Source: Eledone cirrhosa (lineage: Eukaryota). From it: 64,000 nt of DNA. Positions 6,006-64,000 of the stretch are shown in pieces. Positions within the stretch are counted from its first letter, which is position 1, and the number at the start of each line of letters is the position of its first letter. The notes under the pieces were generated by a model that did no database searches, was not told the DNA's origin, and saw only the letters and a program-made list of their open reading frames with translations. Location: the NCBI GenBank assembly GCA_964016885.1, contig OZ024743.1, positions 42,160,001 to 42,224,000 on the forward strand, written 5' to 3'. The translations under genes were made by a program, and so were the position numbers.

Positions 6006-7480
6006 ATAGGAACGAGTAGGACCCCGACGGCTGAGCTCAAGCCGTTTCGACGGCTAACTCTGGACTAAATGAAAATGTTTCTCCTGGTATTTGAATAGCC
6101 AAGCTTCTCAAGGGGTAATTCCATATATGGTAAAGGTGATTGTCACAAGGATTGGTGAAAGGTTTGTTGTTGAGACAATAATTCTATGAAGGCAATTTGT
6201 GGCGGGAGGGGGTAGCTGAACCTGCCAGTAGGAGAAAGAGGGAGAGGGGTGGAGGAGACCCAGTCATGCATTGATAGTGCCGACTACAGCTGGGCATGAG
6301 GTCAAAGAAGATACTAGGGAGGGAGGAGGGGGAGGAAGTCGAAACAGTAAGTAAAACAATATGGGGTAAATATATAGAAAAATACCGAGAGTGTTAAAAA
6401 GCAATTGAATGTAAAAAAAAAAAATAAAAGAATGTTCTGGTTACTCTGACCTAAGTCTCTCACTGGTACTGCTAGGCTAAAGAAAGGTTTACTAGGTGGG
6501 ACGGAATTATAATGAGACCCTTTTAAGAGGTATAAGTAATAAACCGAGTATATCTTACGGTGACGGGTCAACAAGTTAGGGGCCAAAATATTAAAGAAAC
6601 TACCACGAAATAATAAATAAAGGTTTCTACCCCAGGCACAAGGCCAGCAACCACCCAGTGCAAAAAAGTAAACTAATACGAAATAATAATTCAGAATCCC
6701 GAAAAAGAATACTAATACTATCTCTGAGGGTGCCGCCACGATACAAAAGTTCCAGTGCAAACTACATAAACGCTCGTACGAGGTATATGTAAAATTCAAA
6801 ACGGAAAATTAATTCATAATCCCCCCCCCCCCCCACAAAAAAAAAAAAAATAAAGACTGATATACGAGAAATTAAAGCAAAGATACCACTAAGAAATATA
6901 GAAAGCACGGAAAAGGGGCAGCGGTCGGATAAGAAGGCAAGTATCCGGGGTCTAACACATCTGCTATAAAAGCGGAGTCGGCCAAATCTATCATAGAATA
7001 GGGGAAGGGGGTGGGGGTACTGAGACTACAAAGGACCGAGGGGCTGCCTCGGGTGGTCTAGAAAATGAAAAGGACGACGACAAAGAAAGAGGACTGGTTT
7101 GGAAGGACTAGGGAGGGATGGGTGGAAGAAGGAAATATAGAGGAAGCGATAAAAAGATATAAAAGCAGATATTACGTCTACCGTTGCAAGCAGGGGTTAC
7201 CCATTACAAAATCAGCAAGTGGGGTGTTATAGCCCTAGTCTACCCCCCGGATCATTATGAGGTTTGAGGGCGAGGTAAGTCCTACGCAATCTGTCTTTAC
7301 ATGCAGTAACCAGTTCATATTTCTTGTTTAGGAGTTGGTCCGTCGAAAACAACATTTGTAAAGTTTCCTCCGAGCATGAATTGCACGGACGGCGTCCTCC
7401 CGTGTAAGAGTTGGCTCTGGACAGTAAGCTCCAAGTGAGATCATAGGTAACGTTGTTATACTTGAGGTCCCATATGACCC
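6006..7480 (-). mobile_element. Inverted 3' copy (GIY-YIG C-terminus + pLTR) of the adjacent Penelope-like element
   Basis: Reverse complement of ~10070-11488. It joins the forward copy at gacccg (~7476) and its outer end abuts (TA)n. Confidence 0.92.
6021..6116 (-). ncRNA. Type I hammerhead ribozyme, U3-A8 variant core, long helix II
   Basis: Minus strand reads acccc TTGAGAA gcttggctattc...gagttagccgtc GAAA cggcttgagctcagccg TC ggggt. Helix I is acccc/ggggt, helix III is acggct/agccgt, and the cleavage triplet is GUC. Confidence 0.75.
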
Positions 7481-8158
7481 GTCACCGTAAGATATACTCG
7501 GTCTATTACTTATACCTCTTAAAAGGGTCTCATTATAATTCCGTCCCACCTAGTAAACCTTTCTTTAGCCTAGCAGTACCAGTGAGAGACTTAGGTCAGA
7601 GTAACCAGAAATTGTTTATTTTTTTTTTTTACATTTAATTGCTTTTTAACACTCTCGGTATGTTTCTATATATTTACCCCATATTGTTTTACTTACTGTT
7701 TCGACTTCCTTCCCCTCCTCCCCCCTAGTATCTTCTTTGACCTCATGCCCAGCTGTAGTCAGCACTATCAACGCATGACTGGGTCTCCTCCACCCCTCTC
7801 CCTCTTTCTCCTACTGGCAGGTTCAGCTACCCCCTCCCTCCACAAATTGCCTTCATAGAATTATTATGTCTCAACAACAAACTTTTGACCAATCCTTGCT
7901 CGGCTATTCAAATACCAGGATAAACATTTTCATTTAGTCCAGAATTAGCCGTCGAAACGGCTTGAGCTCAGCCGTCGGGGTCCTACTCGTTCCTATTACC
8001 CACTCTAAGTATTGAGTACTTTGGTGCGTTATGGTTCACCTGGTTCCTTACCACATTTCCTCCTTTATCTAGCTCCTATTCCCGTAGTAGAGCACTTTCC
8101 GACCCTACCACGCCGTATCCAGACTTTTCCGCTAAGCTCTAGTTCTTTCACCCGCACC

Positions 8159-10323
8159 ATGTGAAAACACAACATTGACTTCTCTACCAAGAACATCCCA
8201 GTCCCACCGAAAAAAATTTACCTTCGGATGCTCACGCAAAAAATCGATCTATTTGCGAAAAGACTTAGATGGAGAACTTTTTTCTACGACAGATATTGCG
8301 ACAATCAGGACTTCGGTACCAAGGAGAGATTCGGATTTATTACCTACAAATCTCCCCCTCCGAACCCTATGCTCTCACCCCTCGAGAATGACCTTTTCCA
8401 ACTGGTCAAGAACATTAAATTCAAACCCAGACACAACCGATTCCTACAAAAACTCCGTAGCAACTTAACAGAGTATGATAACACCAATGACATCATGGTG
8501 CACTCGGATAAAACTGGTAATCTCTATTTTGTCAACCCCGACAGATACCACACACTGATCAGGAGCAGCCTAAACTCCACCTATAAAAAGGCTAACCACT
8601 CATGCATCGGGGACATAAATCGAGATGGACAACAAATTACCTCCAGCCTCGGGGTCGCCGACCGCACGGAACCCCTAGACCCATAGACACCCTACTTCAC
8701 ACTGAAGGACCACAAATCCGATTTCGACCGTAAACCTTCTATCAGGCTTATAAACCCAACGAAGTCCGACATAGTGAGAATCAGCAAAAAAACCTAGACC
8801 GCGTTATACCAAAAGTTAAGCAACACGCCCGACTTAGCCTATGGTTCAACACCCAGGAAGTAATCTCATGGTTCAGCAATATGGAGGAAAAACGAGACAC
8901 TAAATTTCATCCAGTTTGACATAGAGAGTGACTATGCGTCAATCACCTTACCGCTACTTACGGCTGCCTTGGACTTCGCCGAAGCACTTGTGCCCATCAC
9001 CCACCAGGAAAGAAACATCATCCTCCACGCCAGGAAGACAGTCTTACTCTTCGACAACTCAAAATGGATAAAGAGAGCTTCCGACTCACCCTTCGACGTC
9101 AGCATGGGCGCGACGGATTCGGCTGAGGTCATAGATCTTATAGGATTATTCCAAATAGCCAAACTCACCGATATGTTTCCTGCATTCGGCGGTGGATTGT
9201 ACCGTGATGATGGGCTCCTTACCCCTAAAGGGTAAAACCTCAGTAGTACAGATCGTGTCCGTAAACAATTAATCAGCTTCTTCCGCGACTGGGGATTTAA
9301 AATATCCCTACAAACGTCGCTGACCCGAGTAAACTTCCTGGACGTTACCCTTGACCTCGATAATGATTTGTACTACCCATACAGGAAACCTAACGACAAC
9401 CTGCACTACATCCACCGCCGGTCAAACCATCCTAGGAACATCACCAATAACCTGGTTAAAAACATCTCCCTCCGCATATCCCGTTTGTTAGCTAATGAGC
9501 AGATATTCGAGGAACATGCGCCGTATTACATCCAGGCCCTCAAGCGGAGTGGTTTCCGGGAGGAAATATCCTACTGTCCAGCTTCCATTAGCGGAACCAG
9601 CAGGCGACACCGCCGCTCACGCAATGTAACATGGTTCAATCCTCCCCACAACGCCGAGGTGACAACTCCTATCGGGAAAATCTTCTTTAGGCTCATTGAA
9701 AAACACTTCCCACTACAACAACGCTACCACAACATAATTTAAAAAATACCATCAAACTCTCTTACAGCACCACACCAAACTTTGCACAAAGCATCGTCTC
9801 CTCTGACAACAAAAAACACAACCCCTATGGAAGAAATAACCTAAATAGCAGCGGAGAGCCGACCAGGAGGTGCAACTGTCCTGATGGATCCATTTTCCCC
9901 CTCGACAACAGATGCAGAGATCGTAATGTGATCTACCAGTGCAACGTGAGGACGGACACCTCCAACAAGGCTTATATAGGATTAACCGCATGTGACTTCA
10001 AGACCCGGCTATACCAACATAGACATACCTTCCGAAACCCGGCCCGGCATCACGCCACTACACATTCGGGCCACATATGGGACCTCAAGGATAACAACAT
10101 TACCTATGATCTCACTTGGAGCTTACTGTCCAGAGCCAACTCTTACAGGGGAGGACGCCGTCCGTGCAATTTATGCTCGGAGGAAACTTTACAAATGCTG
10201 TTTTCGACGGACCAACTCCTAAACAAGAAATATGAACTGGTTACTGCATGTAAAGACAGATTGCGTAGGACTTCCCTCGCCCTCAAACCTCATAATGACC
10301 CGGCGGGTAGACTAGGGCTATAA
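8159..10323 (+). pseudogene. Disrupted PLE reverse transcriptase + GIY-YIG endonuclease ORF (~720 codons)
   Basis: Fragments FSTKNIP, RLRWRTFF, DKTGNLY, DIESDYASI, SMGA, GGGLYRDDGL, NFLDVTLDL, YRKPN, CNC linker, IYQCNV...YIGLT...FKTRLYQH and CNLCSEE, with several stops and frameshifts. Confidence 0.92.
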
Positions 10324-11377
10324 CACCCCACTTGCTGATTTTGTAATGGGTAACCCCTGCTTGCAAAGGTAGACGTAAGATCTTCTTTTATATCTTTTTA
10401 TCGCTTCCTCTATATTTCCTTCTTCCCCCCATCCCTCCCTAGTCCTTCCAGCCCAGTCCTCTTTCTTTGTCGTCGTTCTTTTCATTTTCTCACCCACCCG
10501 AAGCAGCCCCTCGGTTCTTTGTAGCCTCAGTACCCCCACCCCCTTCCCCTATTCTATGATAGATTTGGCCGACTCCGCTTTTTATAGCAGATGTGTTAGA
10601 CCCCGGATACTTTCCTTCTTATCCGACTGCTGCCCCTTTTCCGTGCTTTCTATATTTCTTAGTGGTGTCTTTGCTTTAATTTCTCGTATATCAATCTTTA
10701 TTTTTCCGTATCAAATTTTACATATACCTCGTACGAGCATTTATGAAATTTGCACTAGAACTTTTAAATCGTGGCGGCACCCTTAGAGATAGTATTAGTA
10801 TTCTTTTTCGGGATTCTGAATTATTATTTCGTTTTAGTTTACTTTTTTGCACTGGGTGGTTGCTGGCCTTGTGCCTGGGGTAGAAACCTTTATTTATTAT
10901 TTCGTGGTAGTTTCTTTAGTATTTTGGCCCCTCACTTGTTGACCCGTCACCGTAAGATATACTCGGTTTATTACTATACCTCTTAAAAGGGTCTCATTAT
11001 AATTCCGTCCCACCTAGTAAACCTTTCTTTAGTCTAGCAGTACCAATGAGAGACTTAGGTCGTAATAACCAGAAATTGTTTTTTTTTCAATTGCTTTTTA
11101 ACACTCTCGGTATTTTTCTATATATTTACCCCATATTGTTTTACTTACTGTTTCGACTTCCTCCCCCTCCTCCCCCCTAGTATCTTATTTGACCTCATGC
11201 CCAGCTGTAGTCAGCACTATCAACGCTTGACTGGGTCTCCTCCACCCTCTCCCTCTTTCTCCTACTGGCAGGTTCAGCTACCCCTCCCTCCACAAATTGC
11301 CTTCATAGAATTATTATGTCTCAACAACAAACTTTTGACCAATCCTTGTGACAATCACCTTTACCATATATGGAATT

Positions 11378-11473
11378 ACCCCTTGAGAAGCTCGGCTATT
11401 GTAATACCAGGATAAACATTTTCATTTAGTCCAGAATTAGCCGTTGAAACGGCTTGAGCTCAGCCGTCGGGGT
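11378..11473 (+). ncRNA. Type I hammerhead ribozyme (U3-A8 core) in the 3' pLTR
   Basis: acccc TTGAGAA gctcggcta...tagccgtt GAAA cggcttgagctcagccg TC ggggt; same motif as 6021-6116. Confidence 0.72.
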
Positions 11474-11565
11474 CCTACTCGTTCCTATTACCCACTCTAC
11501 TACCCTAACTATTGAGTACTTTGGTGCGTTATGGTCCACCTGGTTCCTTACCACATTTCCTCCGT

Positions 11566-11632
<67 letters not shown>

Positions 11633-14039: not shown

Positions 14040-14327
14040 CATGGTGGCTACCAACTCGTTTTCGAGAACGTCCACTACTTTATATCCATGTAGGAGAACT
14101 CCTACCTATGCACTGAACGAGTGACATTTTAGTCCAGCCAGCGACTTGAAAACTCTGGTACAAACACTACACTTGTGACAATTATTGACACATAGTGCTG
14201 GGCCCATGGTACCATGTGACGACAAGTGCAGAGAGATCTCCAGATATAAAGCAATGCCTGTGCCGTGAAGCTGTTATAGTGAGCAAAGGCACTGCACAAA
14301 GCCAGTCCCACTCTCCTAACCAAGATG
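14040..14327 (-). mobile_element. Short non-autonomous RTE-related element (5'-truncated copy)
   Basis: Reverse complement of ~60120-60410. Its 3' end ctcgaaaacgagttggtagccaccat resembles the RTE 3' terminus at 15640-15685. Confidence 0.7.
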
Positions 14328-14370
14328 CATACATACATACATACATACATACATACATACATACATACAT

Positions 14371-15540
14371 ACTCAGTGTTACTGGGAACTTTAACATCAA
14401 TGGTGATGTGGATAGGCTATACTTCTCACGCAAGGAAGGTGGCCGGGGTCTAAAATCAATATTAACAACATATGAGACCCGGATAGTGACACTGAAGCAA
14501 CACCTTCAACAGAGGAAAAAGGTTGGCAACCATCTTGCCCAGGTTTATGACCATGAAAAAAGAAATATCATTAGAATAGCGACTGATCTGGAGGAGAGAT
14601 ATGGAATAAAGCCCGATATAAATCTCTCACCCAGAGAAATCGGAAGATCCTATTCAATGTTCAAACAAGAAAAAAAAATTGACCAATTTACAGAAAAAGT
14701 TGTGCATGGATACTTGAGGCGTAAAACACAGACCATAGAGGGGATAAACCACTCAAAAAGCCTGGCATGGAGTTCCGACAAGTTTATGACATCACACCTT
14801 GAGGGATATCTCTATGCAATACAGGAACAAGAACTCCCGACCAAATATCTGCTGCACAAAAGAGGAGGGCCAGCAGCTGACAATAAATGTAGGCTATGTA
14901 AAACAAAGATCGAGGATGTAAGCCACATTGTTGCCAGCTGCGAAAGAATGTCATCTCGCTACTACCTCCCATGAGACACGATGGGATAGCTAGAACCATC
15001 TGGAACGCACTTCGGAAAACAAAATCAACAACAAACGAGGAAGAATATATTGAGACAGATGGCACTAAGGAATACTGGTGGAACCTGAAAATAAAAACTG
15101 CCACCAAATTAAAGTACAACCGGCCTGATATTGTAGTTTGGGACCACACATTGAAAACGTGTTCTGTTGTGGAGATCAGCTGCCCACTTGATGTAAACGT
15201 TGTCAGAAAAATACAGGAGAAGGAGGACATCTACGGACCATTGATGAGGAGTTTACAAATCCAGTATCCAAGATACACCTTTAGCTTCATACCCATCATT
15301 ATTGGTGCTACGGGTTATATACCAACCCGCTTGGACCAAAGTATGACTGAACTTGGATTTGCGGACAAAAAGCGCAGCTCCCTAATTCATAGTCTACAAA
15401 TGGCTGCGATAGCTGGCACCTTCAAAATTTGCAAAACATTCTTGCGATTCAAGGGATGACAATTTCTTTTCTTTTACAACCTTGCCACCAGGAAGGTGAC
15501 CGGTCAAAAAATATACTCAAAATTAAGAGAAAGAGAAAAC
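14371..15540 (+). mobile_element. 5'-truncated non-LTR element with CCHC zinc knuckle + restriction-like endonuclease (R4/Dong-like)
   Basis: RLYFSRKEGGRGL, AIQEQEL, CRLC...EDVSHIVASC, RHD, RPDIVVWD...VEISCP, K...Y, with one frameshift at ~14970. (TACA)n flanks both sides. Confidence 0.85.
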
Positions 15541-16101: not shown

Positions 16102-19100
16102 TAGCAACTAACAGTGCTGCGATCGAATGTGGCTTTTTAGCCCAGCCAATGATCTAAAATGTCTTGCACAGAGTCGGCAACCAAAACATTCACTGGGAAT
16201 AGTCGGCTGTGGTTGGAGTTCGTGTACTTTTGCATGTCGCTTGAGCCCTCCTGCTGATTTACATTCTCTACAACATGTTTGGCAATCATGATGAGTAGCA
16301 TCTCCAACAGCAGCCTGGTAGTCAACCACTGGTCTTACTTTATGACTGCGAAGATGACTTTCGAGTCCAGCTTTGCTTAAGCAGAGTCTCGCACAGACGC
16401 TGTATGTCAGCACCATAGGAGGACCCTCGCCGTCTGGAAGTGCAACAGCAATGCCCTTCCTCACGTCCCGCTTTACTTTCTCGTGTGCGATTCGAGATGC
16501 CTCAAAGGCAACTTTTCCCTCATATACAGTCTTTCTCCATTTATTACGATCAGCAGCAATATTTTCCCATGTATCAGCAGAGATGTTAGCGTCTTTCAGA
16601 GAGGCTTTCAGGGAATCCTTATACCTCTTTTTTGGTTTATGTGGCGGTCGTTTTCATTTAACCAACTCTCCATAGAAGAGTTGTTTTGGTATTCTAGAAT
16701 CCTTCATCCTGGCAAGGTGACCACTCCAACGGAGTCGTTGCTTAAGCACAAGAGCTTCTATACTGTCACACATAGAGCTTTCCAAAATCTCGACATCACT
16801 GATGTGGTCCCTCCAGTGAACGCCATGGATCCGTCTGAGGCACATCTGATGGAAACGCTCCAATTGCTTAAGGTGGCGTCGATATGTGACCCAGGTCTCG
16901 CAGGCATAAAGAAGACAAGAGAGTACACATGCCCTGTACACATTTACCTTTGTCCTCCTGCATATGTCTCGCCGACCCTAGAGTCGCCTTTCTAGCTTTC
17001 CGAAAGCATCACCTACTTTTCTAATCCTAAGTCAGATTTCACTGTCAAGGTTGCCATATCGATTGACAGTGCTTCCCAGGTAGACAAACTGATCAACCAC
17101 TCCAAGTCGTTTGCCATACACATAGATGTTTGGTTCAGTGTACTGCTTACTAGGGGCAGGTTGGTACATGACGTCGGTTTTCTTGAGACTGACAGTCAAA
17201 CCCAGGGCAGTGCAAGCGTCAGAAAATGCATTCAAAATGTGCTGCATATCACTCTCTGTGTGCGCTACAAGATCGCAATCATCTGCATACAAGAGGTCTC
17301 TTATGACTGATGTAAATACTTTTGTCTTCGCAGCAAAGCGCCTGAAGTTAAATATGCTGCCTGAGGTTCGATATCGGATGTAAACACCATGCTCGCAATT
17401 CCTGAATGCAATACAGAAAACCATTGCAAAGTATATGGCAAACAAGGTCGGTGCTGGAATATCCACCTGTTTCACTCCATTTTTTCCTGAGATAGGCTCC
17501 GACATGCTACCCCCGACATTAACCCAAGCCTTCATGTCGTCATGGAAAGACCTAACTAAAGCAAGGAACTTATCAGGGCAACCAAGTTTCTGGAGAACCT
17601 TCCATAATGCATCTCTGTTGACAGTATCGAAAGCCTTTGTCAGATCGACAAAAACCTCATACAGATCCAAGCCTTGTTCAATGCACTTCTCCTGGAGCTG
17701 TCTAGCTGAGAAGATCATATCAGTAGTGCCGCGTCCAGCACGAAAACCAGATTGACTTTCAGGAAGGACACTATCTGCAATGTGTGTCAGCATACGGTCC
17801 AGAAGCACCCTACATAAAACTTTCCCTACGACAGAAAGCAATGATATACCTCTGTAGTTCCCACAATCATTCCTGTTACCCTTTCCCTTGTACAAGACCA
17901 CCATTACTGCATCTCTCCAGTCCTCAGGCACGGATTCATTAGCCCATATCTTTCCAAACAAAGAGTGAAGATGTTGCAGGAGTCTCTCACCACCATATTG
18001 TAGGAGCTCAGCATGTATGCCATCCCTACCTGGAGATCTTCCACTGTTCAGCTTCGAAATAGCCACTGCAACCTCCACAAGCGTCGGAGGTTCTGCGAGA
18101 GCTATTTTCACAGGACTTTCCGGAATGAGATTGAGGAAATCTTCACTGATGACAGACGGCTGATTCAAAAGATCATCAAAGTGCTCTCGCCACCTTCGTA
18201 GAATTCCCTGTGAGTCACGAAGAAGTTCTTTGCCATCCTTGCTGCGAATCGGTGTCACCAGAGAAGAAGACGGTCCATAAACCTCACGCAAGAGACTGTA
18301 CAACAGCTTTGTGTTATTGGAATCAGACGCAGTTTGTATCTCACCAGCCTTCTCACTCCACCACTGATCCTTAATCTGAGAAAGACTTCGCCTAACACGT
18401 GATTTTACATCCCTGAGCTCCTCATGCAACGTATCCCTCTCCTGTGGTTTTGCCGTCAAGTAGCGTGACAGAGCACGCCTCTTTTCAGCCAACAAGTCTT
18501 CTATATGTACATCATTCTCATTAAACCAGTCCTGATGTTTTCTCAGAACACGTCTGCCTACATCATAAACCGTCTTTTTAAGGGTCGGCCAATCCTCACC
18601 AAGATCTGCAGCCTGCATCTCTTCTTCCAATGTTCTCTTCACATTTTTATCCTTAAGACGAGCAGCATTCAATCTTTTGGGCAGGGTAACACCAGGAGCC
18701 CGGATTTTACGTTTGGTGATTAGATTCACTTTTGCGCGTACCAGGCGGTGGTCCGTCCAGCACTCAGCTCCACGAAGAACACGAACACACTGCACATCCT
18801 GTCTGTCACGCATCCTGACTAGGACGTAGTCCAAAAGATGCCATTCCTTAGATGCAGGATGCATCCATGTGGTCTTGAATTTGTTCTTTTGTTGGAACAT
18901 GGTGTTGGTAACACACAGATCCAGCTCCTTACACATCTGCAGCAGGAGCATACCATTGTTGTTACACTTTCTCACCCCATGCCTTCCGATTACATTCCAT
19001 GTGTTAAAATCCCTACCCACTCTAGCATTAAATCACCAAGCACGATAACTTTGTCTGCCTGAGGGATATTTCTTAAAACACCTTTCAAGGCATGATAAAA

Positions 19101-24342: not shown

Positions 24343-24345
<3 letters not shown>
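23600..24345 (-). mobile_element. Solo pLTR-like insertion with ~110 bp terminal direct repeat (period ~596) and candidate HHR
   Basis: 23600-23710 is repeated at 24196-24305. A candidate HHR lies on the minus strand at 23840-23936. Confidence 0.55.
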
Positions 24346-24405
<60 letters not shown>

Positions 24406-24411
<6 letters not shown>

Positions 24412-25835
24412 TTGTAGCTCTGAAATAGCAATATATATATGGATGTAAATATAATGTATTTTGCAATACACTTTATGCTTAATTAAAAGCATTTTGAAGA
24501 CCGTAAGCTATTGTTTTAAAGTAGTGACAAATTCACTCACTTCGATCTCAGCAAACAGGAGGAGATAAGCCGACATGACATGTTTCGCTTTTGTTGAAGC
24601 TTATCAAGGCCAACTACCCCGCCCGTCTGCTGAGATCAATGATGTTATATTCTTATAGAAATCTAGTAAATAATCAGGAGCTGATTATGCAGAGCGGTTG
24701 TTGGTCAGGAAGAAAGTAAAAATTAGAATTGTAGCTTTGAAATAGCAATATATAGATGGATGTAAATATAATGTATTTTGCAATACACTTTATGCTTAAT
24801 TAAAAGCATTTTGAAGACCGTAAGCTATTGTTTTAAAGTAGTGACAAATTCACTCACTTCGATCTCAGCAAACAGGAGGAGATAAGCCGACATGACATGT
24901 TTCGCTTTTGTTGAAGCTTATCAAGGCCAACTACCTCGCCCGTCTGCTGAGATCAATGATGTTATATTCTTTTAGAAATCTAGTAAATAATCAGGAGCTG
25001 ATTATGCAGAGCGGTTGTTGGTCAGGCAGAAATTAAAGATTAGAATTGTAGCTCTGAAATAGCAATATATATATGGATGTAAATATAATGTATTTTGCAA
25101 TACACTTTATGCTTAATTAAAAGCATTTTGAAGACCGTAAGCTATTGTTTTAAAGTAGTGACAAATTCACTCACTTCGATCTCAGCAAACAGGAGGAGAT
25201 AAGCCGACATGACATGTTTCGCTTTTGTTGAAGCTTATCAAGGCCAACTACCCCGCCCGTCTGCTGAGATCAATGATGTTATATTCTTATAGAAATCTAG
25301 TAAATAATCAGGAGCTGATTATGCAGAGCGGTTGTTGGTCAGGCAGAAATTAAAAATTAGAATTGTAGCTCTGAAATAGCAATATATATATGGATGTAAA
25401 TATAATGTATTTTGCAATACACTTTATGCTTAATTAAAAGCATTTTGAAGACCGTAAGCTATTGCTTTTAATTAAGCATAAAGTGTATTGCAAAATACAT
25501 TATATTTACATCCATATATATATTGCTATTTCAGAGCTACAATTCTAATTTTTAATTTCTGCCTGACCAACAACCGCTCTGCATAATCAGCTCCTGATTA
25601 TTTACTAGATTTCTATAAGAATATAACATTATTGATCTCAGCAGATGGGCGGGGTAGTTGGCCTTGATAAGCTTCAACAAAAGCGAAACATGTCATGTCG
25701 GCTTATCTCCTCCTGTTTGCTGAGATCGAAGTGAGTGAATTTGTCACTACTTTAAAACAATAGCTTACGGTCTTCAAAATGCTTTTAATTAAGCATAAAG
25801 TGTATTGCAAAATACATTATATTTACATCCATATA
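24406..25835. repeat. 317-bp tandem array (3.3 units) plus an inverted 1.2-unit arm; each unit carries a type I HHR (retrozyme-like)
   Basis: Units start at 24406, 24723, 25040 and 25357, with a strand switch at ~25464 and (TA)n at both ends. HHRs lie at 24568-24611, 24885-24928, 25202-25245 (-) and 25660-25703 (+). Confidence 0.95.
25660..25703 (+). ncRNA. Type I hammerhead ribozyme, U3-A8 core (representative of the 317-bp family)
   Basis: ggcc TTGATAA gctt caacaa aagc GAAA catgtcatg TC ggct. Helix I extends via gatctcagcaga...gggg / ctcctcctgtttgctgagatc. Confidence 0.85.
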
Positions 25836-26010
25836 TATATATATATAGTTAACTATTAGACAGGAACAAAAGACAGAGGGGCAGTACAACTGGTAGTTTA
25901 TTAAGTTCACGCTTTTGTGAGTGGGGTGGTGCTGGTGTGGTGGAGTATATATGTGTTTATTAATTAACAGATTAAATTTTAAACAAATAATCGCTGCTTT
26001 CACCCTTTAC

Positions 26011-26060
<50 letters not shown>

Positions 26061-26077
26061 GTAAAGGGTGAAAGCAG

Positions 26078-33840: not shown

Positions 33841-34427
33841 TTAATATAAGCAAATAAGTAAACAAAAAAAATGATAAAATGGTAGCAGGAATAAGATGTA
33901 AAACAATAAAATAAGATAATCAAATAAAATGTGTGTGTGTTTTAACCAATCTCAAAGTTAGAAAGATTTGGAAGATCCTCTCCTCCCATTGGTCAGTTGT
34001 GAGACTATTCCTCAGTCAAAAGTGTATAGAAATTCTTTCTGAGGTGAGGCGATCCGTCGTGTTTGGTTTTTGCTATTGTTCAGTACACCTGACCTCCACC
34101 CTGATGTTGGCATTGGTGTTGATGCTGCGGTCAGCATAAGTCTTGCTGTCACTGATTTTAGAAGGATCTGTGTGTTTGTGTTGGCTTCCATCCTACCACT
34201 ATTTCTTGTGGTGGTGGTGGTGGGTGGTTGTGCCAAGCATATGAAGAAATAAAATAAAAAATAAAGAATGAATAAAGAATTAAAATTTAAAAAATGAAAA
34301 AAATGAAGAGAACAATAGAATGAAATGAAAAGGTAAAAGACTAAAAAATAAGAAATAAGAATAAAAAAAAAATAAAGAAGTAAAGTAGAGTAAAATGAAA
34401 TAAAATAATATAAAATAAAATAAAATA

Positions 34428-34808
34428 ATATAATTGTTTCTACGTTAGGCACAAAGCCAGCAAATACCCATTGTATTACTGGTACTTTATTTTATCGACC
34501 CCGTAAGGATGAAAGGCAAAGTTAACCTTGGCGAGATTTGAACTCAGAATGGCAACGGCCGTAACTCTATGCGTCAAACATGGCGTCCGACCCTCTACCG
34601 ATACTGCCAATGAAATAATATAATTGTTTCTACTTTAGGCACAAGGCCAGCAATTACCGAGTGCATTACTGGTACTTTATTGTATCGACCCCGTAAGGAT
34701 GACAGTCAAAATCAACCTCGGCGGGATTTGAAATCAGATCGTAAAGGGACGTAACTATGCTGGAAAGCATGGCGTCCGACCCTCTACCGATACTGCCAAT
34801 CAACCGCC
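34428..34808 (-). mobile_element. Two tandem tRNA-SINE copies
   Basis: Same family as 5641-5825. Confidence 0.85.
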
Positions 34809-43119: not shown

Positions 43120-43169
<50 letters not shown>

Positions 43170-43276
43170 ATAATAATAAATTTGAAAACTAAAATCTAAA
43201 GAGAGCGCGATAAGGATAAATATATATCAAATATATAAGAACCGTAGACCAAATATTTATTAAAATAACAGATTAA

Positions 43277-43326
43277 AGTTTAAGCAAAAATCGCTGCTTT
43301 CACCCTTACCGGGATCTTCTGAAACT
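43277..43326 (-). ncRNA. Type I hammerhead-like motif, U4A variant
   Basis: agttt CAGAAGA t ccc ggtaa ggg t GAAA gca...tgc TT aaact. Confidence 0.65.
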
Positions 43327-44070
43327 AACAAAGTAAATCTGTGAACGCAGAAGTGGATATTTCAAAAAACGTTGCAACCGGAGGAAGACGGTACTTTGGT
43401 TCCTGGAAACGTTCCTTGGTAAAGAACGGGGAAAAACGAATAATATACGTCATTATTTGGAGCGGTGAAAAACAATTACCCGCAAAGACAAAAGCACGTT
43501 TATGGTATAAAAGAAGTCGTAGACTAATTTTCTATTAGGTGGTTCATAGAGACGTTCTCTGGCAATGAACGGAAAAAACGAAGATAATACGTCATATGTG
43601 GAGCGTGAAGAACAATTACACGCAATGACAAAACCACGTAAATGGTATAACTGAAGTCGTAGACTAAAATTCTAACTAAGAAACCGAATGATTCTCGACT
43701 TCACAGTTAACAATAAAGTAAATAAAATACAGAGGTAAATGAAATTAATTAAATACATACACGCACCCATAAACGTACATACACAAGCCTACGCGAAAAC
43801 ACTCGCCATAGATATACAAATACACGCACATACACAAAAAAAATAAAAATAAAAAATAAACCTCACGCACATACAGAACTCACACAACGCCTGTACCCGC
43901 ACGCATACGAATGTATACACCAAATACACATAAAAATATATATAAAATATATATATATATAGTAATAATAATAAAATTGAAGACTAAAATCCAAAGAGGG
44001 CTCGATAAGGAAAATATATATCAAATATATAAGAACCGTAGAGCAAATATTTATTAAAATAACAGATTAA

Positions 44071-44121
44071 AGTTTAAGCAAAGAATCGCTGCTTTCACCC
44101 TTAACGGGATCTTCTGAAACT
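44071..44121 (-). ncRNA. Type I hammerhead-like motif, U4A variant (second pLTR)
   Basis: agttt CAGAAGA t ccc gttaa ggg t GAAA gcagcgattctttgc TT aaact. Confidence 0.65.
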
Positions 44122-47049
44122 AACAAAGCCAATCTGTAAACGCAGAACTGGATATTTCAAAAAACGTTGCAACCGGAGGAAGACAGGAAGACGATACTTT
44201 GGTTCGTGGTAACGTTCGCTGGCAAAGAACGGGAAAAAACGAATAATACGTCATTAATAGGAGCGGTGAAAAACAATTACGCGCAAAGACAAAACCACGT
44301 TTATGGTATAAAAGAGGTCGTAGACTAATGTTCTCTTAGGTGGTGCATAGAGACGTTCTCTGGCAATGAACGAAAAAACGAAGATAATAAGTCATATGTG
44401 GAGCGTGGAGAACAATAGCACGTAAAGACAAAACCACGTAAATGGTATAGCAGAATCGTAGACTAAAATTCTAACTAGGAGACCAAATGAATCTCCGCTA
44501 CAGAGTTAAGAACAAAGTAAATAAATACAATACAGAAGTAATAGAAACAAATAAATACATATACGCAAACAGATACGTACATACACAAGCATACGCAAAA
44601 CCTTACCATGGGTATACAAACCACGCACATATAAATATGTGCGTGTGTGTATGCTTGTGTCCAAATAAATAAATAATTATATAAGCGTATATAAGTAAAT
44701 AAATACGTATATAACAAGCGCACACGCATACCTACATATAAATACACTTATGTTCGGAGACGTACGTCATTCAAAACACGATGTACACATATACACACAC
44801 CCTACATACGTACTAACCCGCCTACTCACACAAACGCAAAACTCACGTTTACACATAACCAAAAGCATATGTACCAGAAAAAATAATATATACGCCATAA
44901 CATATACAATCAAATATACGTACGAGAAAGTATACGTACTTTCACAAAACAGGTAATATATACTTACCTATACAAATAAGTAATGGTATAAACATAACAT
45001 ATACTTAGCTACCACATCAAGACGTAAAATATCCGCGTATAGTTCGTACTATCCGTTAGGGTATAATGTGGGGCTGTAATACAGGAAAGTTTTGTGCAAT
45101 TTATGTTTACAAGCCGAAATTGCCTCAGATTTTTGTTTAAGATGTGGTCTTGGGCGTAGAGTAAGTCCAAGGCCTCAGCGGCGCAACGGTAAAGTTGTCT
45201 CTTATTTCCGTTATACAATCTGGCCGTAACTAGGATCTCCGAGTGTAACTTATATTGGGTGTGGTTGATATAAGCTGAAAGTGACGTCATATTCCTTCTT
45301 AAAGGGTAACGAAAATAATGCGTATGCATGTAAAGACGCTGCTTGAATCTATTGGCGGTTAACCATATGTAGGCCCTACGGGACGTGGATGTTTCAACCT
45401 TGCATTTGTAGACAATGTTACTAGAGAGGCATTTCCCGGATAGGGGGCAGTCAACCCGATTCCTACAATTACAGTTAGTACTAACTACAGGGTTGCACGT
45501 GTTCCTACGGCTATGTAGTATAGCTAAATTTGAAGCTGTGATGTTATGTGCAAGGTTAAGATTCGTAGAGTAAGAAATTTTAATAGTATTTCTATTAAAA
45601 ATGTTACTATATATTTGTGTAGGGGGAAAATGCTTCATAATAAGGGAGAGAAAGACCTTAGCTAATGGTGTGGCCACCTCCATATTATATGGTGGGTTAT
45701 ACCATATAATGCGTCGGGATCTATTCCTTCTAGGTCTATTCTCGTACTCTGTATATGCTACCTTATCGACAAATCCACTCCGAGCAAGAGCTTCATTGTA
45801 ATATGTGGAATAGTCATTGAAAATATGCTCGTTAGTAGATAGACGGGAAAGCCTCAAAGAAACTTTTCTTACCAGGTTCTTGGTTATGCTGGCAGGATGG
45901 TTATAATGCTTACTTATGTAATTAAGCGTATCATTCGGCTTCCTATACGGGTAATGCAAGCCATTCGATAAATTAAGGGTAACGTCGAGGTAATTAACGA
46001 CCGAGAGATTGGCATCAACCTGTATGGAGTGGTTGGAGCCTTTAAAGAAGGCTGTGAGTTCTTTTCTGAACCTGTCGCATGCAGGTGGGCCCAACTTAGT
46101 CATGATCAAAAGACCATCATCACGGTACAAACCACCGCCCACGTTGGGGAATTCTTCCTAGATAGAGAAAAGAAGGAAAAGGCCGATATGATCAGTAACC
46201 TCCGCAGAATCGCTGGTGACCATACTCACGTCGAATGGGGTACTATTAGATTGTTTAATCCAAATAGAGTCGTCGATATTAATCACCGACTTACAGGCAT
46301 TGAGGTTGACATCAACTCCGAAATCCTTAACCACTGTGAGTGTTTTACCGAAATTGATAGCTCTAAGGAGAAGTGGTAAAGTGATGGATGAGTAGTAATT
46401 ATTGATGTCGAATTGGATAAAACGGCAATGTTCCTTGTTGCATATTCCGTTGAACCAATCAATCACCGCGAAAGAATTGTTCCACAGTGCAAGAGGGGCC
46501 AAACTTCTAATTTCATGTATAATTCTATCAAGAATCCTTTTACTAAGTCTACCTAAATCGGACTTCTAGAGTTAATAAGCCAAATAGAGGGGTTGTTCGG
46601 AAAATTGAATCTGTGATCCTTCAGGGTAAAGTGGGGAGAAATAGGGTCCAGAGGTTCAGTCCGGTCAAGGATTTTGAGATCAGAGGTATATTTTAAACCC
46701 AGCATCGTTGATATCATTTATGACGCTCCGATTAGTTTTACGGTAATACTTAGTTACAGCATTATGTAGCAGTTGATGGTAAGTACTGTGCTCCACTTGA
46801 TATAGTTTGCCATTCAAGATTTCTTCAGTGGGATTTTTTAAATTCATTTTCGACCTGTCTGTCATCGGACTTACTTGCCAAAAACTGCTTTTTCTGGAAA
46901 TGGTGGCGGGGAGGGGTATCGTTGGACTTAAAAATGAGTAACTCTCGGCCGTATAAATTTAAAGAAAATCATTCACTGGGGATCGCCAAAATTTGTTTAT
47001 GCTCGTTTTATTTTCATGTTTTCAATTTATCTGAACTCTAATATAGCCG

Positions 47050-49620
<2,571 letters not shown>

Positions 49621-54572: not shown

Positions 54573-56340
54573 TTGGATCGAATCGTAATTGACCAACTAA
54601 CCTGTTAGTTAGAATGGGATTAGGTCTCATAGAGAATCCCTATGATGTAGACGTTCTACTGCTTTTACATCTAACTTATATATTTTTTTATTAGATATCA
54701 TATTGAATTTTTAGGAAAATTGTGTGGTCATCATGTTAGTAGGCTATATTGCATGCAATCAAAGGCACGAATGCTATATAACATGTAGATGGCAGAGAAG
54801 TGTAAGAAAAGTAGATAGTAATAGAATGTATTATATAATGCTAATGTAATATCTAAGGAACCACGTTAGTAGTAAAAAAGGTACTGTTTCCGTGTGGAAA
54901 AAAATAAAAAATAAAATATCGAACATTACATCTTCGTTATATTTGCAATGCTAAATATAGAGGTCACTTTCTTTCATCTTAAAGAAAAAATATTATTTAT
55001 TGATCGTAATGACAAAATATATATAAACACAGACATTTATAAAGGAAATAATAACTCACTCAATAATTGTCTGAAAATCGTTATTACTATTTCTTAATTG
55101 AAAATTGTTTTCGTTAGTTATTTTTATGCATCGATATAATATGAATTATAGCAGTGATGGCTCCTCAACGTTATGTGTATGTGGTTACGATGCATTTTAT
55201 ATAAGCCAAAGTTGGATGTATTTAGCAATAGATTATAAGATATGTATACGAGATGGTTCTGATATCAATATTGCCGTTAGGAATGGAGGTTTAGTCAAAG
55301 TCGGTTGCGAGTTTAGCTAGCGGAACATACAAAATAAACAATAAATTTAGGTTAGACCAGTAGTATCTTTTTTAAAATGTTAATGTTGCCGCCAGTAACG
55401 TTTCTGAATATTAAGCGAGCCTGTCGAAAATGTAGATGACGGAAGTATTGGTCTTGGAAGTATTTTTGGCGGCTGTAATTTTATCGCTGACAATGGTATA
55501 ATAATTTATTATCAGAAATAGGATTGTACCGGAAGTAAATTGTTGGAAATAATACAACCGAAAGCAAATATTTCTGAAGAAATGCAGATGGACTTTATGA
55601 CAGCCAAACTGAATGATGCCGTCTGAATATGTAGATCAAGTAAAAATGGTTTTATATAATGGTATATTGCCCTTCTAGATTATGGAAAATCGTTAGTTAA
55701 GTTTGAAAGATAAAATTGTATTTCGTTTCTTTGCACAAATGTTGAAGCACACAATGTCAGAGACGTTTGGATTTCTTCTATTCCTTCCTGGTGTCAAATC
55801 TAGTCACTAAATGCATGAAAGAGCTCCTACGTTATAATACGATTTCACCCGGGATAATGATGTTTCTGAATAATAATTCTACTGATATGAGATAAGACAA
55901 GCAATTAAAATACTTCCTATTGATCATATCATCATTAGCGTGTGTCTAAATTTGGATATATAAATCCTCAAAATGCTAAGAGTATATCAATTATTTCTTG
56001 GAATTGATAAAGCAACAACATTGAGATTATCCGTTACTGTATACACAACAGTATCTAGTCTGACACTGCAGGATTACATTCCACGTAAATCATAAATTAA
56101 GCAGTCTATAGCTTATAAATTCTAAGAATTATAGCTATCAGATATCTGAGCAACACACGTAATCTGACGAAATGATATGGGAGTGTAGGAAATGATGGCT
56201 AGTCATCCAGTAAAGAGAAAAATGTAATTCTACAGAGTAGTAAACAATCCGACGACAAAGACATCTAATTAAAAGGATGTAGCAAAACATATGCATATAT
56301 ATATGTTATGCATGTATATATATATATATAGAGAGAGAGA

Positions 56341-57227
<887 letters not shown>

Positions 57228-57397
57228 AAATATTATTTCGCTTCAAGCATAGCTTTATACAATATGTATAAATATTTCGTATTCCTAAAGAAATACGATT
57301 TTAGGAAGCCGTAGCTATGCAAACACCGGGTGGGCTAACGCCCTCTGATATATATATATATATATATGTATAAATATATTTATATATATATATACAT

Positions 57398-58172
57398 ATA
57401 TGAATGTACATATAGTGTATTTTGCAATACACTGTATGCTTAATTAGAAGCATTTCGAAGACCTTACACTATTGTTTTAGAGTAGTGAAAGTCTCACTTA
57501 CTTTAAATTTTCAGCAAACAAGGGGAGATAAAGCTGACAGATCTCTATTTCATACTTTTTGGTACTTATCAAAGCTAAGTACTCCACCTGTTTGGTGATA
57601 ATCATGAATGTTTGATTCTTATAGAATTCTAGTAATAATCAGGAACTGATTATACAGAACGGTTGCCGGTCAAGTAGAAATTGAAAATTAGAATTCGTTC
57701 TCTGAAACAGCGATATATATATGAATGTATATATAGTGTATTTTGCAATACACTGTATGCTTAATTAAAAGCATTTCGAAGACCTTACGCTATTGTTTTA
57801 GAGTAGTGACAGTCTCACTTACTTTAAATGTTCAGCAAACAAGGGGAGATAAAGCTGTCAGAGCACCAATTCTAATTTTCAAATTTCTGCTTGACCGGCA
57901 ATTGCTCTGTATAATCAGTTCCTGTTTATATCAAACATTCATGATTTTCAGCGAGCAGGTGGAGTACTTAGCTTTGATATGTACCAACAAGTACGAAACA
58001 GAGCTCTGTCAGCTTCATCTCCCGTTGTTTGATGAAAATTTAAAGTAAGTGAGACTGTCACTACTCTAAAACAATAGCGTAAGATCTTCGAAACGCGTCT
58101 AATTAAGCATACAGTGTATTGCAAAATACACTATAAATACATTCATATATATCGCTATTTCAGAGCACCAAT

Positions 58173-58174
<2 letters not shown>
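57398..58174. repeat. 321-bp-period tandem + inverted array, diverged member of the U3-A8 HHR repeat family
   Basis: atgaatgta(c/t)atatagtg at 57400 and 57721, with a strand switch at ~57860. HHRs at 57532-57576 (-) and 57970-58014 (+). Confidence 0.88.
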
Positions 58175-58213
<39 letters not shown>

Positions 58214-61889: not shown

Positions 61890-62420
<531 letters not shown>

Positions 62421-62430
62421 TATATATATA

Positions 62431-63089
62431 TTAGAATTGGTGCTCTGAAATAGCTATATATATATGAATGTATATATAGTGTATTTTGCAATACACTGTA
62501 TGCTTAATTAAAAGCATTTCGAAGCCTTATGCTATTGTTTGAGAGTAGTGACACACTCACTTACTTTCATTTTCAGCAAACAGGGGAGATAAAGCTGACA
62601 GGGCCCTGTTTCGCATGTATTGATGCTTATCAAAGCCAACTACTCCTCCTGTTTACTGAAATCATGGATGTTTGGTTCTTATAGCATTCTAGTAAATAAT
62701 CACGAACTAATTATACAGAGCGGTTGCCGGTCAAGCAGAAATTGAAAATTACAATTGGTGCTCTGAAATAGCTATATATATATGAATGTATATATAGTGT
62801 ATTTTGCAATACACTGTATGCTTAATTAAATTCTGCTTGACCGGCAACAGCTCTGTATAATCAGTTCCTGATTATTTACTAGAATGCTATAAGAACCAAA
62901 CATCCATGATTTCAGTAAACAGGAGGTGTAGTTGGCTTTGATAAGCATCAATAAATGCTAAATAGGGCCATGTCAGCTTTATCTCCCCTGTTTGTTGAAA
63001 ACTAAAGTAAGTGAGTCTGTCACTACTCTAAAACAATAGCATAAGGCTTCGAAATGCTTTTAATTAAGCATAAAGTGTATTGCAAAATA

Positions 63090-63095
<6 letters not shown>
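62431..63095. repeat. 318-bp-period tandem + inverted array, third member of the U3-A8 HHR repeat family
   Basis: Unit starts at 62431 and 62749, with a switch at ~62828. HHR ggct TTGATAA gcat caatac atgc GAAA cagggccctg TC agct at 62593-62637 (-), and a mutated copy at 62934-62978 (+). Confidence 0.9.
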
Positions 63096-63139
<44 letters not shown>

Positions 63140-63147
<8 letters not shown>

Positions 63148-64000
63148 AAACGTAAAATCAGTGAAGCATCTGAACTCAATTTATTGTGTGTTACAATTGT
63201 TTCGCCGGCAGACAGCTCGAGACGCGATCATTGTGTGGTTCTGTCTGATTCTGGATCTGCAGGTTCGACGGACACTTCTAATAACTTCGCATCAAATTTT
63301 CTCACTCTCTTAAAATTTGATACATAATGGATATCCGAGCTTTTCTAGGTACATATATTTCGGTCCTATCATCTATTCCTAGCCCCGTCACTATTTTTTT
63401 GGTCGTGGCGTTAATGTTATCTAGGTTGTCCTGTCCTGTGGTCCTGTAATTTTTCCTAATCCCTTTCCCGATGCAGTCGTTGTATGTAAAACGGTCAAGC
63501 ATGTATACATTACCAGTTTTGTCCGATCGCAGAAGTAAATCCTGGCATTCTTCCATGCTTTTGATTGTGGAGCTTAAACTCCGGAGGTAATCCGTATGTC
63601 GTGTATTATTCCTTCGGAACTAGATGTTTCGGACGATATTGATGATACGATTTTCAAATTCTTCCAGCTGTGCGTTATGTGGTGGGTGTCGTCTAAATCC
63701 AAAGATCCGCTTTAGGCCGTCCTGTGGATTATCGGGTGCGTGTTGTTGTGTCCTTCTGTCGTGGTGAAATGCGCGCCATCTCATGCGTCTAACGAAAGAG
63801 TTGGTGTGGTGTATCAGTAAGCTCATGTACGTGTTGTGAGACGGGATCAGGATGTCCTTTAAAGAGGAAGAGTAATTGAATGTTTCCATGGCGAATCGCT
63901 GTGAGCGCTCTACTTGTGGAGGAGCGTAATATATATGTGTGTCTGATGGTAGCTAAGATGCTTCCATAGGTGGTATGCCGGTTGAGCACTCTATGTTCTA
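63140..64000 (-). mobile_element. Internally deleted Penelope-like element (ORF N-terminus + pLTR end)
   Basis: METFNYSSSLKDILIP...FVRRMRWRAF and DKTGNVY...DRTE are homologous to 8159-8686. The ORF stops at ~63300 and is followed by a degenerate HHR (63188-63275) and (TA)n. Confidence 0.85.

Follow-up and report, generated by a model that had tools for sequence, protein, structure and literature searches.

The 317-bp non-coding repeat in the 64-kb window (the whole stretch of Eledone cirrhosa DNA analysed here) is probably a non-autonomous, non-LTR retrozyme, whose RNA would be cut by its own hammerhead ribozyme, re-ligated to a circle and copied into DNA by the reverse transcriptase (RT) and endonuclease of a Penelope-like element (PLE). 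The main new evidence of our analysis is the anatomy of the insertions, the arms of which nearly all end at one of two fixed sites within the repeat unit, S1 and S2. Two further parts of this reading, which the initial annotation had also raised, are known already. The U3-A8 core is a natural hammerhead variant (Perreault 2011, PMC3088659) and has been reported in the hammerheads of Schistosoma PLEs (Cervera 2014, PMC4209133), and the mobilisation of animal retrozymes by PLEs was proposed in 2020 (Cervera & de la Pena, PMC7229834) and is supported in Xenopus by pLTR homology in 24/57 families (Li, Clavereau & Pollet 2026 preprint, 10.64898/2026.07.22.740005). A search of the literature found neither this family nor any retrozyme with a tail signature; Dfam, Repbase and some supplements lay outside its scope and may describe it. 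As presented in a 2020 review, retrozyme repeats show no motif that would indicate a helper. For cephalopods, the giant squid genome paper gives 235 hammerhead hits, and the main text of a paper on Octopus vulgaris repeats does not mention hammerheads.

The 317-bp repeat and its relatives

The focal locus consists of an array with a period of 317 bp and 3.4 head-to-tail copies (98% matches), followed by an inverted arm that briefly overlaps it at the junction, with (TA)n on both sides (Table 1). In the ORF list of the window no ORF of at least 150 aa overlaps the repeat, and the combined RT and GIY-YIG ORF of an autonomous PLE is absent from it. The tandem-repeat and descriptor results agree with the initial annotation on the head-to-tail units of about 317 nt with one U3-A8 type I hammerhead each, on the (TA)n flanks and the missing ORF, and on C17, which the descriptor places at 25699 on the plus strand. 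The two relatives that had been noticed near 57398-58174 and 62431-63095 are real, and show 72-83% and 82-88% identity, respectively.

Table 1 Features of the window. Unit positions are numbered from the predicted cut site.
Feature	Position	Strand	Remarks
PLE1, Hydra-clade-like, inverted 5' arm, TA flanks	6009..11568	+	ORF region 8153-10299 broken in the window copy
(TA)n target tract, left flank	24345..24405		
Arm 1, 3.4 tandem units, 1066 nt	24405..25471	-	L001; 3' end at S2 (unit position 167), 5' end at position 53; three ribozyme cut sites crossed
Type I hammerhead motif	24546..24635	-	U3 at 24607, predicted cut after 24572
Type I hammerhead motif	24863..24952	-	U3 at 24924, predicted cut after 24889
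Type I hammerhead motif	25180..25269	-	U3 at 25241, predicted cut after 25206
Arm 2, inverted, 378 nt	25463..25840	+	Begins (5') near unit position 81 and ends (3') at S1 (131-141), where the TA tract of the unit runs into the target
Type I hammerhead motif	25636..25725	+	U3 25664, A8 25669, predicted cut after C25699 (C17); helix I long and bulged, helix II of 4 bp closed by a 6-nt loop, helix III palindromic
(TA)n tract, right flank, overlapping S1	25831..25848		
Subfamily B insertion, 321-nt unit, two opposed arms	57392..58175		Motifs 57572 (-) and 57974 (+, A9 to U)
Subfamily C insertion, 318-nt unit, opposed arms (S2 and S1)	62430..63115		Motifs 62633 (-) and 62938 (+, G12 to U)

By the features examined in silico the repeat would belong to the metazoan non-LTR retrozymes, which are described as tandem non-coding units of 150-450 bp with one type I hammerhead each, a GC content below 50% and PLEs in the same genome; the units found here are 317-321 nt long with a GC content of 0.32-0.35. 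They differ from the retrozymes as described in their U3-A8 core and in forming mostly two-armed, inverted insertions in (TA)n with two fixed 3' ends. Since the flanks are themselves (TA)n, a target-site duplication (more than 4 bp in retrozymes when present) is indistinguishable from them.

The three window copies (subfamilies A, B and C) were used as DNA queries against the genome (3.0 Gb in 1796 contigs), which has an octopod-like repeat landscape by its appearance, giving 1175, 3332 and 1756 first-look candidates, respectively, which are not copy numbers and may overlap between queries; the best 40 were scored per search. Altogether 80 distinct sites on many contigs were analysed (65 plus 15 new ones). 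No copy of A-C was present in 20 arbitrary 10-kb stretches, which held one copy of a fourth family, D, so the three copies in the window overstate the density of the repeat. Units of A-C are 82-93% identical to each other and 60-67% to D. Family A units are only 0.8% apart between sites, and the divergence within sites is only slightly below that between sites. The A-C repeats are thus dispersed and young.

Family D has a unit of 346 nt (one copy measured) and gave 752 candidates, 75-82% identical to the query. Beyond the ribozyme its resemblance to A does not reach significance (score 66 versus 53 ± 9), for which reason we rejected D as a homologous subfamily and kept it as an older look-alike with the same architecture. 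Judged by eye, 5/19 of its copies end at positions 135-141 and 4/19 at 183-185, next to TA-rich sequence, while the remaining 10/19 copies end elsewhere, several of them at the interruption by a 190-bp SINE-like repeat. In loci L149-L165 the AAT-rich tract of D is often split by this SINE-like repeat, which in the window is found in tandem at 34419-34800.

The window also contains fragments of two other non-LTR retrotransposons, at 14189-15459 (+) and 16108-19032 (-), with zf-RVT and RVT_1 matches. Near-perfect inverted repeats at TA tracts (61988-62380, 25960-26077 and 56316-56558) are probably short two-armed insertions of PLE ends.

The U3-A8 hammerhead motif

Both strands of the 64 kb were searched with a type I hammerhead descriptor that accepted any Watson-Crick 3-8 pair. 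All six matches are U3-A8, and all lie within the three loci named above. As read from the sequence, the motif has the 3-8 pair, U4 G5 A6, A9, G12 A13 A14, A15.1-U16.1, H17 and the three helices expected of a type I hammerhead. The annotation had counted eight motifs in the window with U3 and A8 retained throughout; this holds for 8/8, but only 6/8 have an intact core, the other two being damaged elsewhere (57974+ and 62938+ in Table 1). Over a larger sample, U3-A8 is present in 143/144 aligned copies.

Rfam family HH9 (RF02275) matches all four focal motifs over its full length with 29.4-31.9 bits (E values 4.5e-4 to 2.8e-3 on 64 kb), but even the best score stays below the gathering score of 52. 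The motif may work like HH9 without being classified in it. As in the known U3-A8 hammerheads, U3-A8 replaces C3-G8, and the helix sizes and loop 2 are HH9-like. The Schistosoma U3-A8 motifs, as described, are minimal PLE hammerheads and mostly single, whereas those found here are of canonical size and in tandem, with a 4-bp helix III. Rfam matches to microRNAs were rejected as artefacts of the TA repeats.

The strands of helix III, of the acatgtcatgt type as annotated, are 11-12 nt long and palindromic. This corrects the annotated helix: within a monomer they would form a 4-bp stem with a 3-4-nt loop, and between two units a duplex of 10-12 bp, so that monomer and dimer folds are both possible.

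In the majority rows of four families 12/12 core positions are identical, compared with 29/65 non-core positions; within families the conservation of the core is weak (Fisher p 0.02-0.28). We analysed the covariation of the helices, which the annotation had pointed out, in an alignment of 30 rows (4 A, 7 B, 8 C, 1 intermediate and 10 D) picked for parseable cores and with chimeric rows excluded. Both sides have changed in 7/12 helix pairs and 95% of the cells are paired. None of 500 shuffles reached the observed percentage paired or covariation score, while two pair-count measures among the five shuffle measures are not significant (117/500 and 488/500), and the result is drawn from only 4-5 lineages. 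The fixed core and covarying helices suggest that the ribozyme is under selection at the level of the source elements.

Folding with ViennaRNA places the catalytic three-way junction 3-5 kcal/mol above the minimum-energy fold, and in the predicted fold of the circle this junction is improbable, with a pair probability of at most 0.25 for the proximal part of helix I. Circular folding gave z values of -5.0, -5.1 and -1.5 for A, B and C, which are weak indications since the antisense strands are partly as stable. Ribozyme activity is accordingly a prediction, to which the hammerhead fold, the conservation of the core and the known retrozymes point.

Anatomy of the insertions and the nature of the template

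In 65 merged A/B/C sites, 93/102 3' ends lie at S1 (positions 129-142, 53 ends) or S2 (165-173, 40 ends), and of the nine that do not, some are alignment breaks. Two of these sites (L098 and L099) resemble one duplicated insertion. One S1 arm and one S2 arm are combined in 27/38 inverted sites. A more precise count was made for family A in 27 out of 28 sites, leaving out L030 with its run of N and nested copies; 15 of the sites came from an independent search. Here 48/49 arms have their 3' end at S1 (141) or S2 (167-172) and one at 157, and the spacing between S1 and S2 is 26-31 nt. Two arms are present at 22/27 sites, and S1 is paired with S2 in 20/22 of them (binomial p 6e-5). As the sites are top-scoring matches, they are biased towards long intact copies and short ones are under-sampled.

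The other end of the arms behaves differently. Family A arms are 124-1678 nt long and their 5' ends are distributed uniformly over the unit (KS p 0.39), with 3/49 falling within 10 nt of the ribozyme cut site compared with 3.1 expected. A total of 81 cut junctions are read through and carry no scars (1 indel base in 1300 versus 45 in 21360 elsewhere). The target is TA at the 3' ends of the arms, where poly(A) or any other tail is absent. At one site (L016) a private variant is present in 9/9 copies and in both arms, and likewise at L021, L104, L097, L111 and L128; in a few cases a variant is carried by only part of the units of an array.

These ends support the Penelope-style insertion that the annotation had claimed: there are two fixed 3' ends, inverted 5'-truncated arms and a microsatellite target. 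The "terminal inverted arm" of the annotation is, on the other hand, not an appendage but one of two arms that appear to be primed at different fixed sites. The pattern of two sites, one per arm, matches the PLE "tail" signature of internal priming. In the work of Frangieh 2024 (PMC11167929) a PLE protein cleaves AT-rich DNA on both strands, extends each of them and begins RT at two adjacent internal sites, leaving a tail of 30-40 bp that is described as unique to PLEs. Craig 2021 also describes the inverted 5'-truncated arm and the tail, as well as the Hydra clade, which targets (TA)n and bears hammerheads. Compared with Poseidon of Anolis (PMC11167929), the repeat shares the two adjacent internal starts, the AT-rich target, the extension of both strands and a hammerhead upstream of the starts, and differs in having no ORF, a tail of 26-31 nt and a template of repeating units that is read several times.

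Taken together, we propose the following course of events. Arrays would be transcribed as multimers. In these the U3-A8 hammerhead would cut after GUC, either within a monomer or in a dimer held together by the palindromic helix III, and so release monomers of 317-321 nt. These would then be ligated into circles, as suggested by the fold, the core conservation and the known retrozymes. A PLE RT/GIY-YIG protein presumably nicks both (TA)n strands, and target-primed reverse transcription would start inside the RNA at S1 and S2, one per strand, in line with the observed ends. The RT would circle the putative template for 0.4-5 turns across the ligated cut site and stop at random. Joining of both cDNAs at their 5'-truncation points would give opposed arms between TA tracts, and one-armed copies would give plain tandem arrays. 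Copying of a cut and ligated circle is the simplest reading because it accounts for both a selected ribozyme and the scar-free read-through of its cut site.

The serious rival is a non-autonomous PLE derivative copied by the same enzyme from the same priming sites, but from uncleaved linear multimers without any circle, the hammerhead being a slow or protein-dependent relic of the pLTR. We regard this as rather unlikely, but it has real points in its favour. Read-through of the cut sites is equally expected from it, and the few variants that only part of the units of an array carry also speak for it. For the element PAc, insertion in vitro is described as not needing hammerhead cleavage, unprocessed RNA being the main substrate (PMC11167929). 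In Xenopus 8/9 retrozyme dimers were not cleaved (10.64898/2026.07.22.740005), and Chlamydomonas MRC1 is a known head-to-tail non-autonomous PLE derivative (PMC8557442). What speaks against it is a core that stays fixed, with covarying helices, between families that are 61-93% identical, a hammerhead of canonical size with an HH9-like loop and bulge, unlike the minimal PLE form, and the finding that a single private variant may run throughout arms of up to five turns.

Part of the unit is also contained in six sequencing runs from four organisms, of which four runs were analysed. One contig of 347 nt (X1) spans the unit and two others (X2 and X3) join the end of the unit to its start. They fit tandem DNA and a circle equally well and were not counted as evidence.

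Far less probable is the copying of linear cleaved monomers by an RT that jumps from the end of one template to the next, or by a non-PLE retroelement of the LINE/RTE kind. R2-type RTs can jump end-to-end between templates, and other RT ORFs are present in the window (RVT_1 17032-19032 and zf-RVT 14189-14974). Such copying should however have left its marks at the cut junction, which shows neither scars nor an excess of 5' ends and by this fidelity largely refutes the idea. Moreover, the 3' ends lie mid-unit and away from the cut site, poly(A) or another tail is missing, S2 and the pairing of the arms go unexplained, and a two-site tail is described as PLE-unique (PMC11167929). It is hardly credible that the repeat is a plain minisatellite which recombination or repair of DNA has spread among TA tracts and which resembles a hammerhead by chance: S1 is an internal TA tract and homology to the target could account for ends there, but S2 shares only 2-3 nt with TA and yet provides about 40% of the ends, and neither the strict S1/S2 pairing, the short arrays spread over many chromosomes nor the compensatory changes around a fixed catalytic core would be expected.

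PLEs of the same genome as candidate helpers

Returning to the retrozyme circle copied by a PLE enzyme, we consider it likely, if somewhat less so than the reading as a whole, that the helper is a PLE of the Hydra clade. The genome is rich in Hydra-like PLEs: first-look searches gave 49490 and 90679 candidates, there are open frames of 713-795 aa, and about 21 groups of PLE fragments occur in the loci analysed. The co-resident PLEs show the Hydra-clade features, i.e. a CxCX5C linker, a C-terminal endonuclease, insertion in (TA)n and a hammerhead, although the last Cys of the linker is altered in the window's copy of PLE1. Pfam gave nothing useful on the PLE proteins.

The annotation had named a co-resident PLE with the same U3-A8 core as the copier of the repeat. 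The core is indeed there: PLE1 has a U3-A8 hammerhead at 11383 (+) with a cut after 11468, and an inverted core at 6111 (-). PLE1 also keeps the rule of one site per arm, with ends at +16-28 and +98-100 in L143, L144, L145 and the window copy. Its role as the copier of this particular repeat is only putative: its helix II is extended (about 55 nt), its end sites are about 80 nt apart compared with 26-31 nt in the retrozyme, and no sequence is common to the PLE1 ends and the 317-bp repeat. PLE1 is therefore taken as a candidate for the class of helper only. A second PLE family with U3-A8 has a compact motif (L002), and other PLE families are C3-G8.

Among the PLEs searched for a partner, which were four full-length families (PLE1, PLE2, L197 and L223) and a few fragments (PLE3-PLE8) out of the approximately 21 groups, none has an end homologous to the unit. 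In this the repeat differs from the 24/57 Xenopus families, for which a homologous pLTR is reported, and also from the Hydra-clade PLEs of Craig 2021, which are autonomous and of which the families examined here have no end sequence in common with it and, in PLE1, a tail of about 80 nt. A single hybrid insertion (L082), in which a retrozyme arm is joined to a PLE3 3'-end arm between TA tracts, is only a lead.

Several other loci were considered as evidence for a partner and not accepted. PLE ends adjacent to the repeat at many sites were rejected because both share TA hot spots, and L109 is ambiguous. At L140 (698-2755) a subfamily C array lies within a fragment coding for a PLE endonuclease, as part of a block of about 1.8 kb that is tandemly duplicated; here the retrozyme lies inside the PLE fragment and was duplicated with it later.

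By eye and post hoc, a short GAGC(A)-type motif was seen between S1 and S2 of the retrozyme, and it also occurs between both end sites of several PLE families (L197, L215, L223 and the window's PLE1), just upstream of the ORFs. It is possibly an RT-binding signal.

Further hammerhead-like motifs were observed in passing. The PLE3 end, with about 2267 first-look candidates and copies in the window at 63147-63922 (-), in L141 at 1142-2306 and in L082 at 1845-1948, can be folded like a hammerhead with a long helix II; its core would have C at position 4 and U at position 6, an unusual variant if real. PLE2, a Hydra-like element at 43145-46980 (-) in the window, is broken here and has open 713-aa frames elsewhere; a 140-bp tandem repeat in its 3' region comes before a hammerhead-like motif, which is C3-G8 and has A at position 4. 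A canonical C3-G8 type I hammerhead is found in another repeated element that ends at a TA tract (48974-49020 (+) in the window, L072 9459 and 9824), and at least six further hammerhead-like families were seen in 200 kb of arbitrary sequence (L061-L080). Judged from sequence, the genome appears to carry a large and varied set of PLE-type ribozymes.

Until now the helper of animal retrozymes, and the circle as its template, have been based on co-occurrence and recently on pLTR homology. The A-C family adds mechanistic footprints, namely PLE-type priming at two fixed sites, each arm using one, 5' ends at random positions and a ribozyme site that is read through without scars, and its value lies in these more than in the core variant. 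More tentatively, the repeat could be a circular RNA of viroid size, living as a satellite of PLE enzymes with which it has no sequence in common, where a dimeric RT-endonuclease primes both nicked strands on one circle, at sites 26-31 nt apart, in a two-headed rolling-circle reverse transcription. If so, the rule of one site per arm would be a genomic read-out of integration by the PLE dimer, and the circle of 317 nt would serve the PLE integrase-RT as a minimal template in trans. A retrozyme lineage can apparently persist with a U3-A8 core over several waves, and descriptors restricted to C3-G8 would overlook such retrozymes. A single small RNA, a target of TA and a PLE protein from this genome, in which young open frames exist, would be enough to put the question of the helper to the test.
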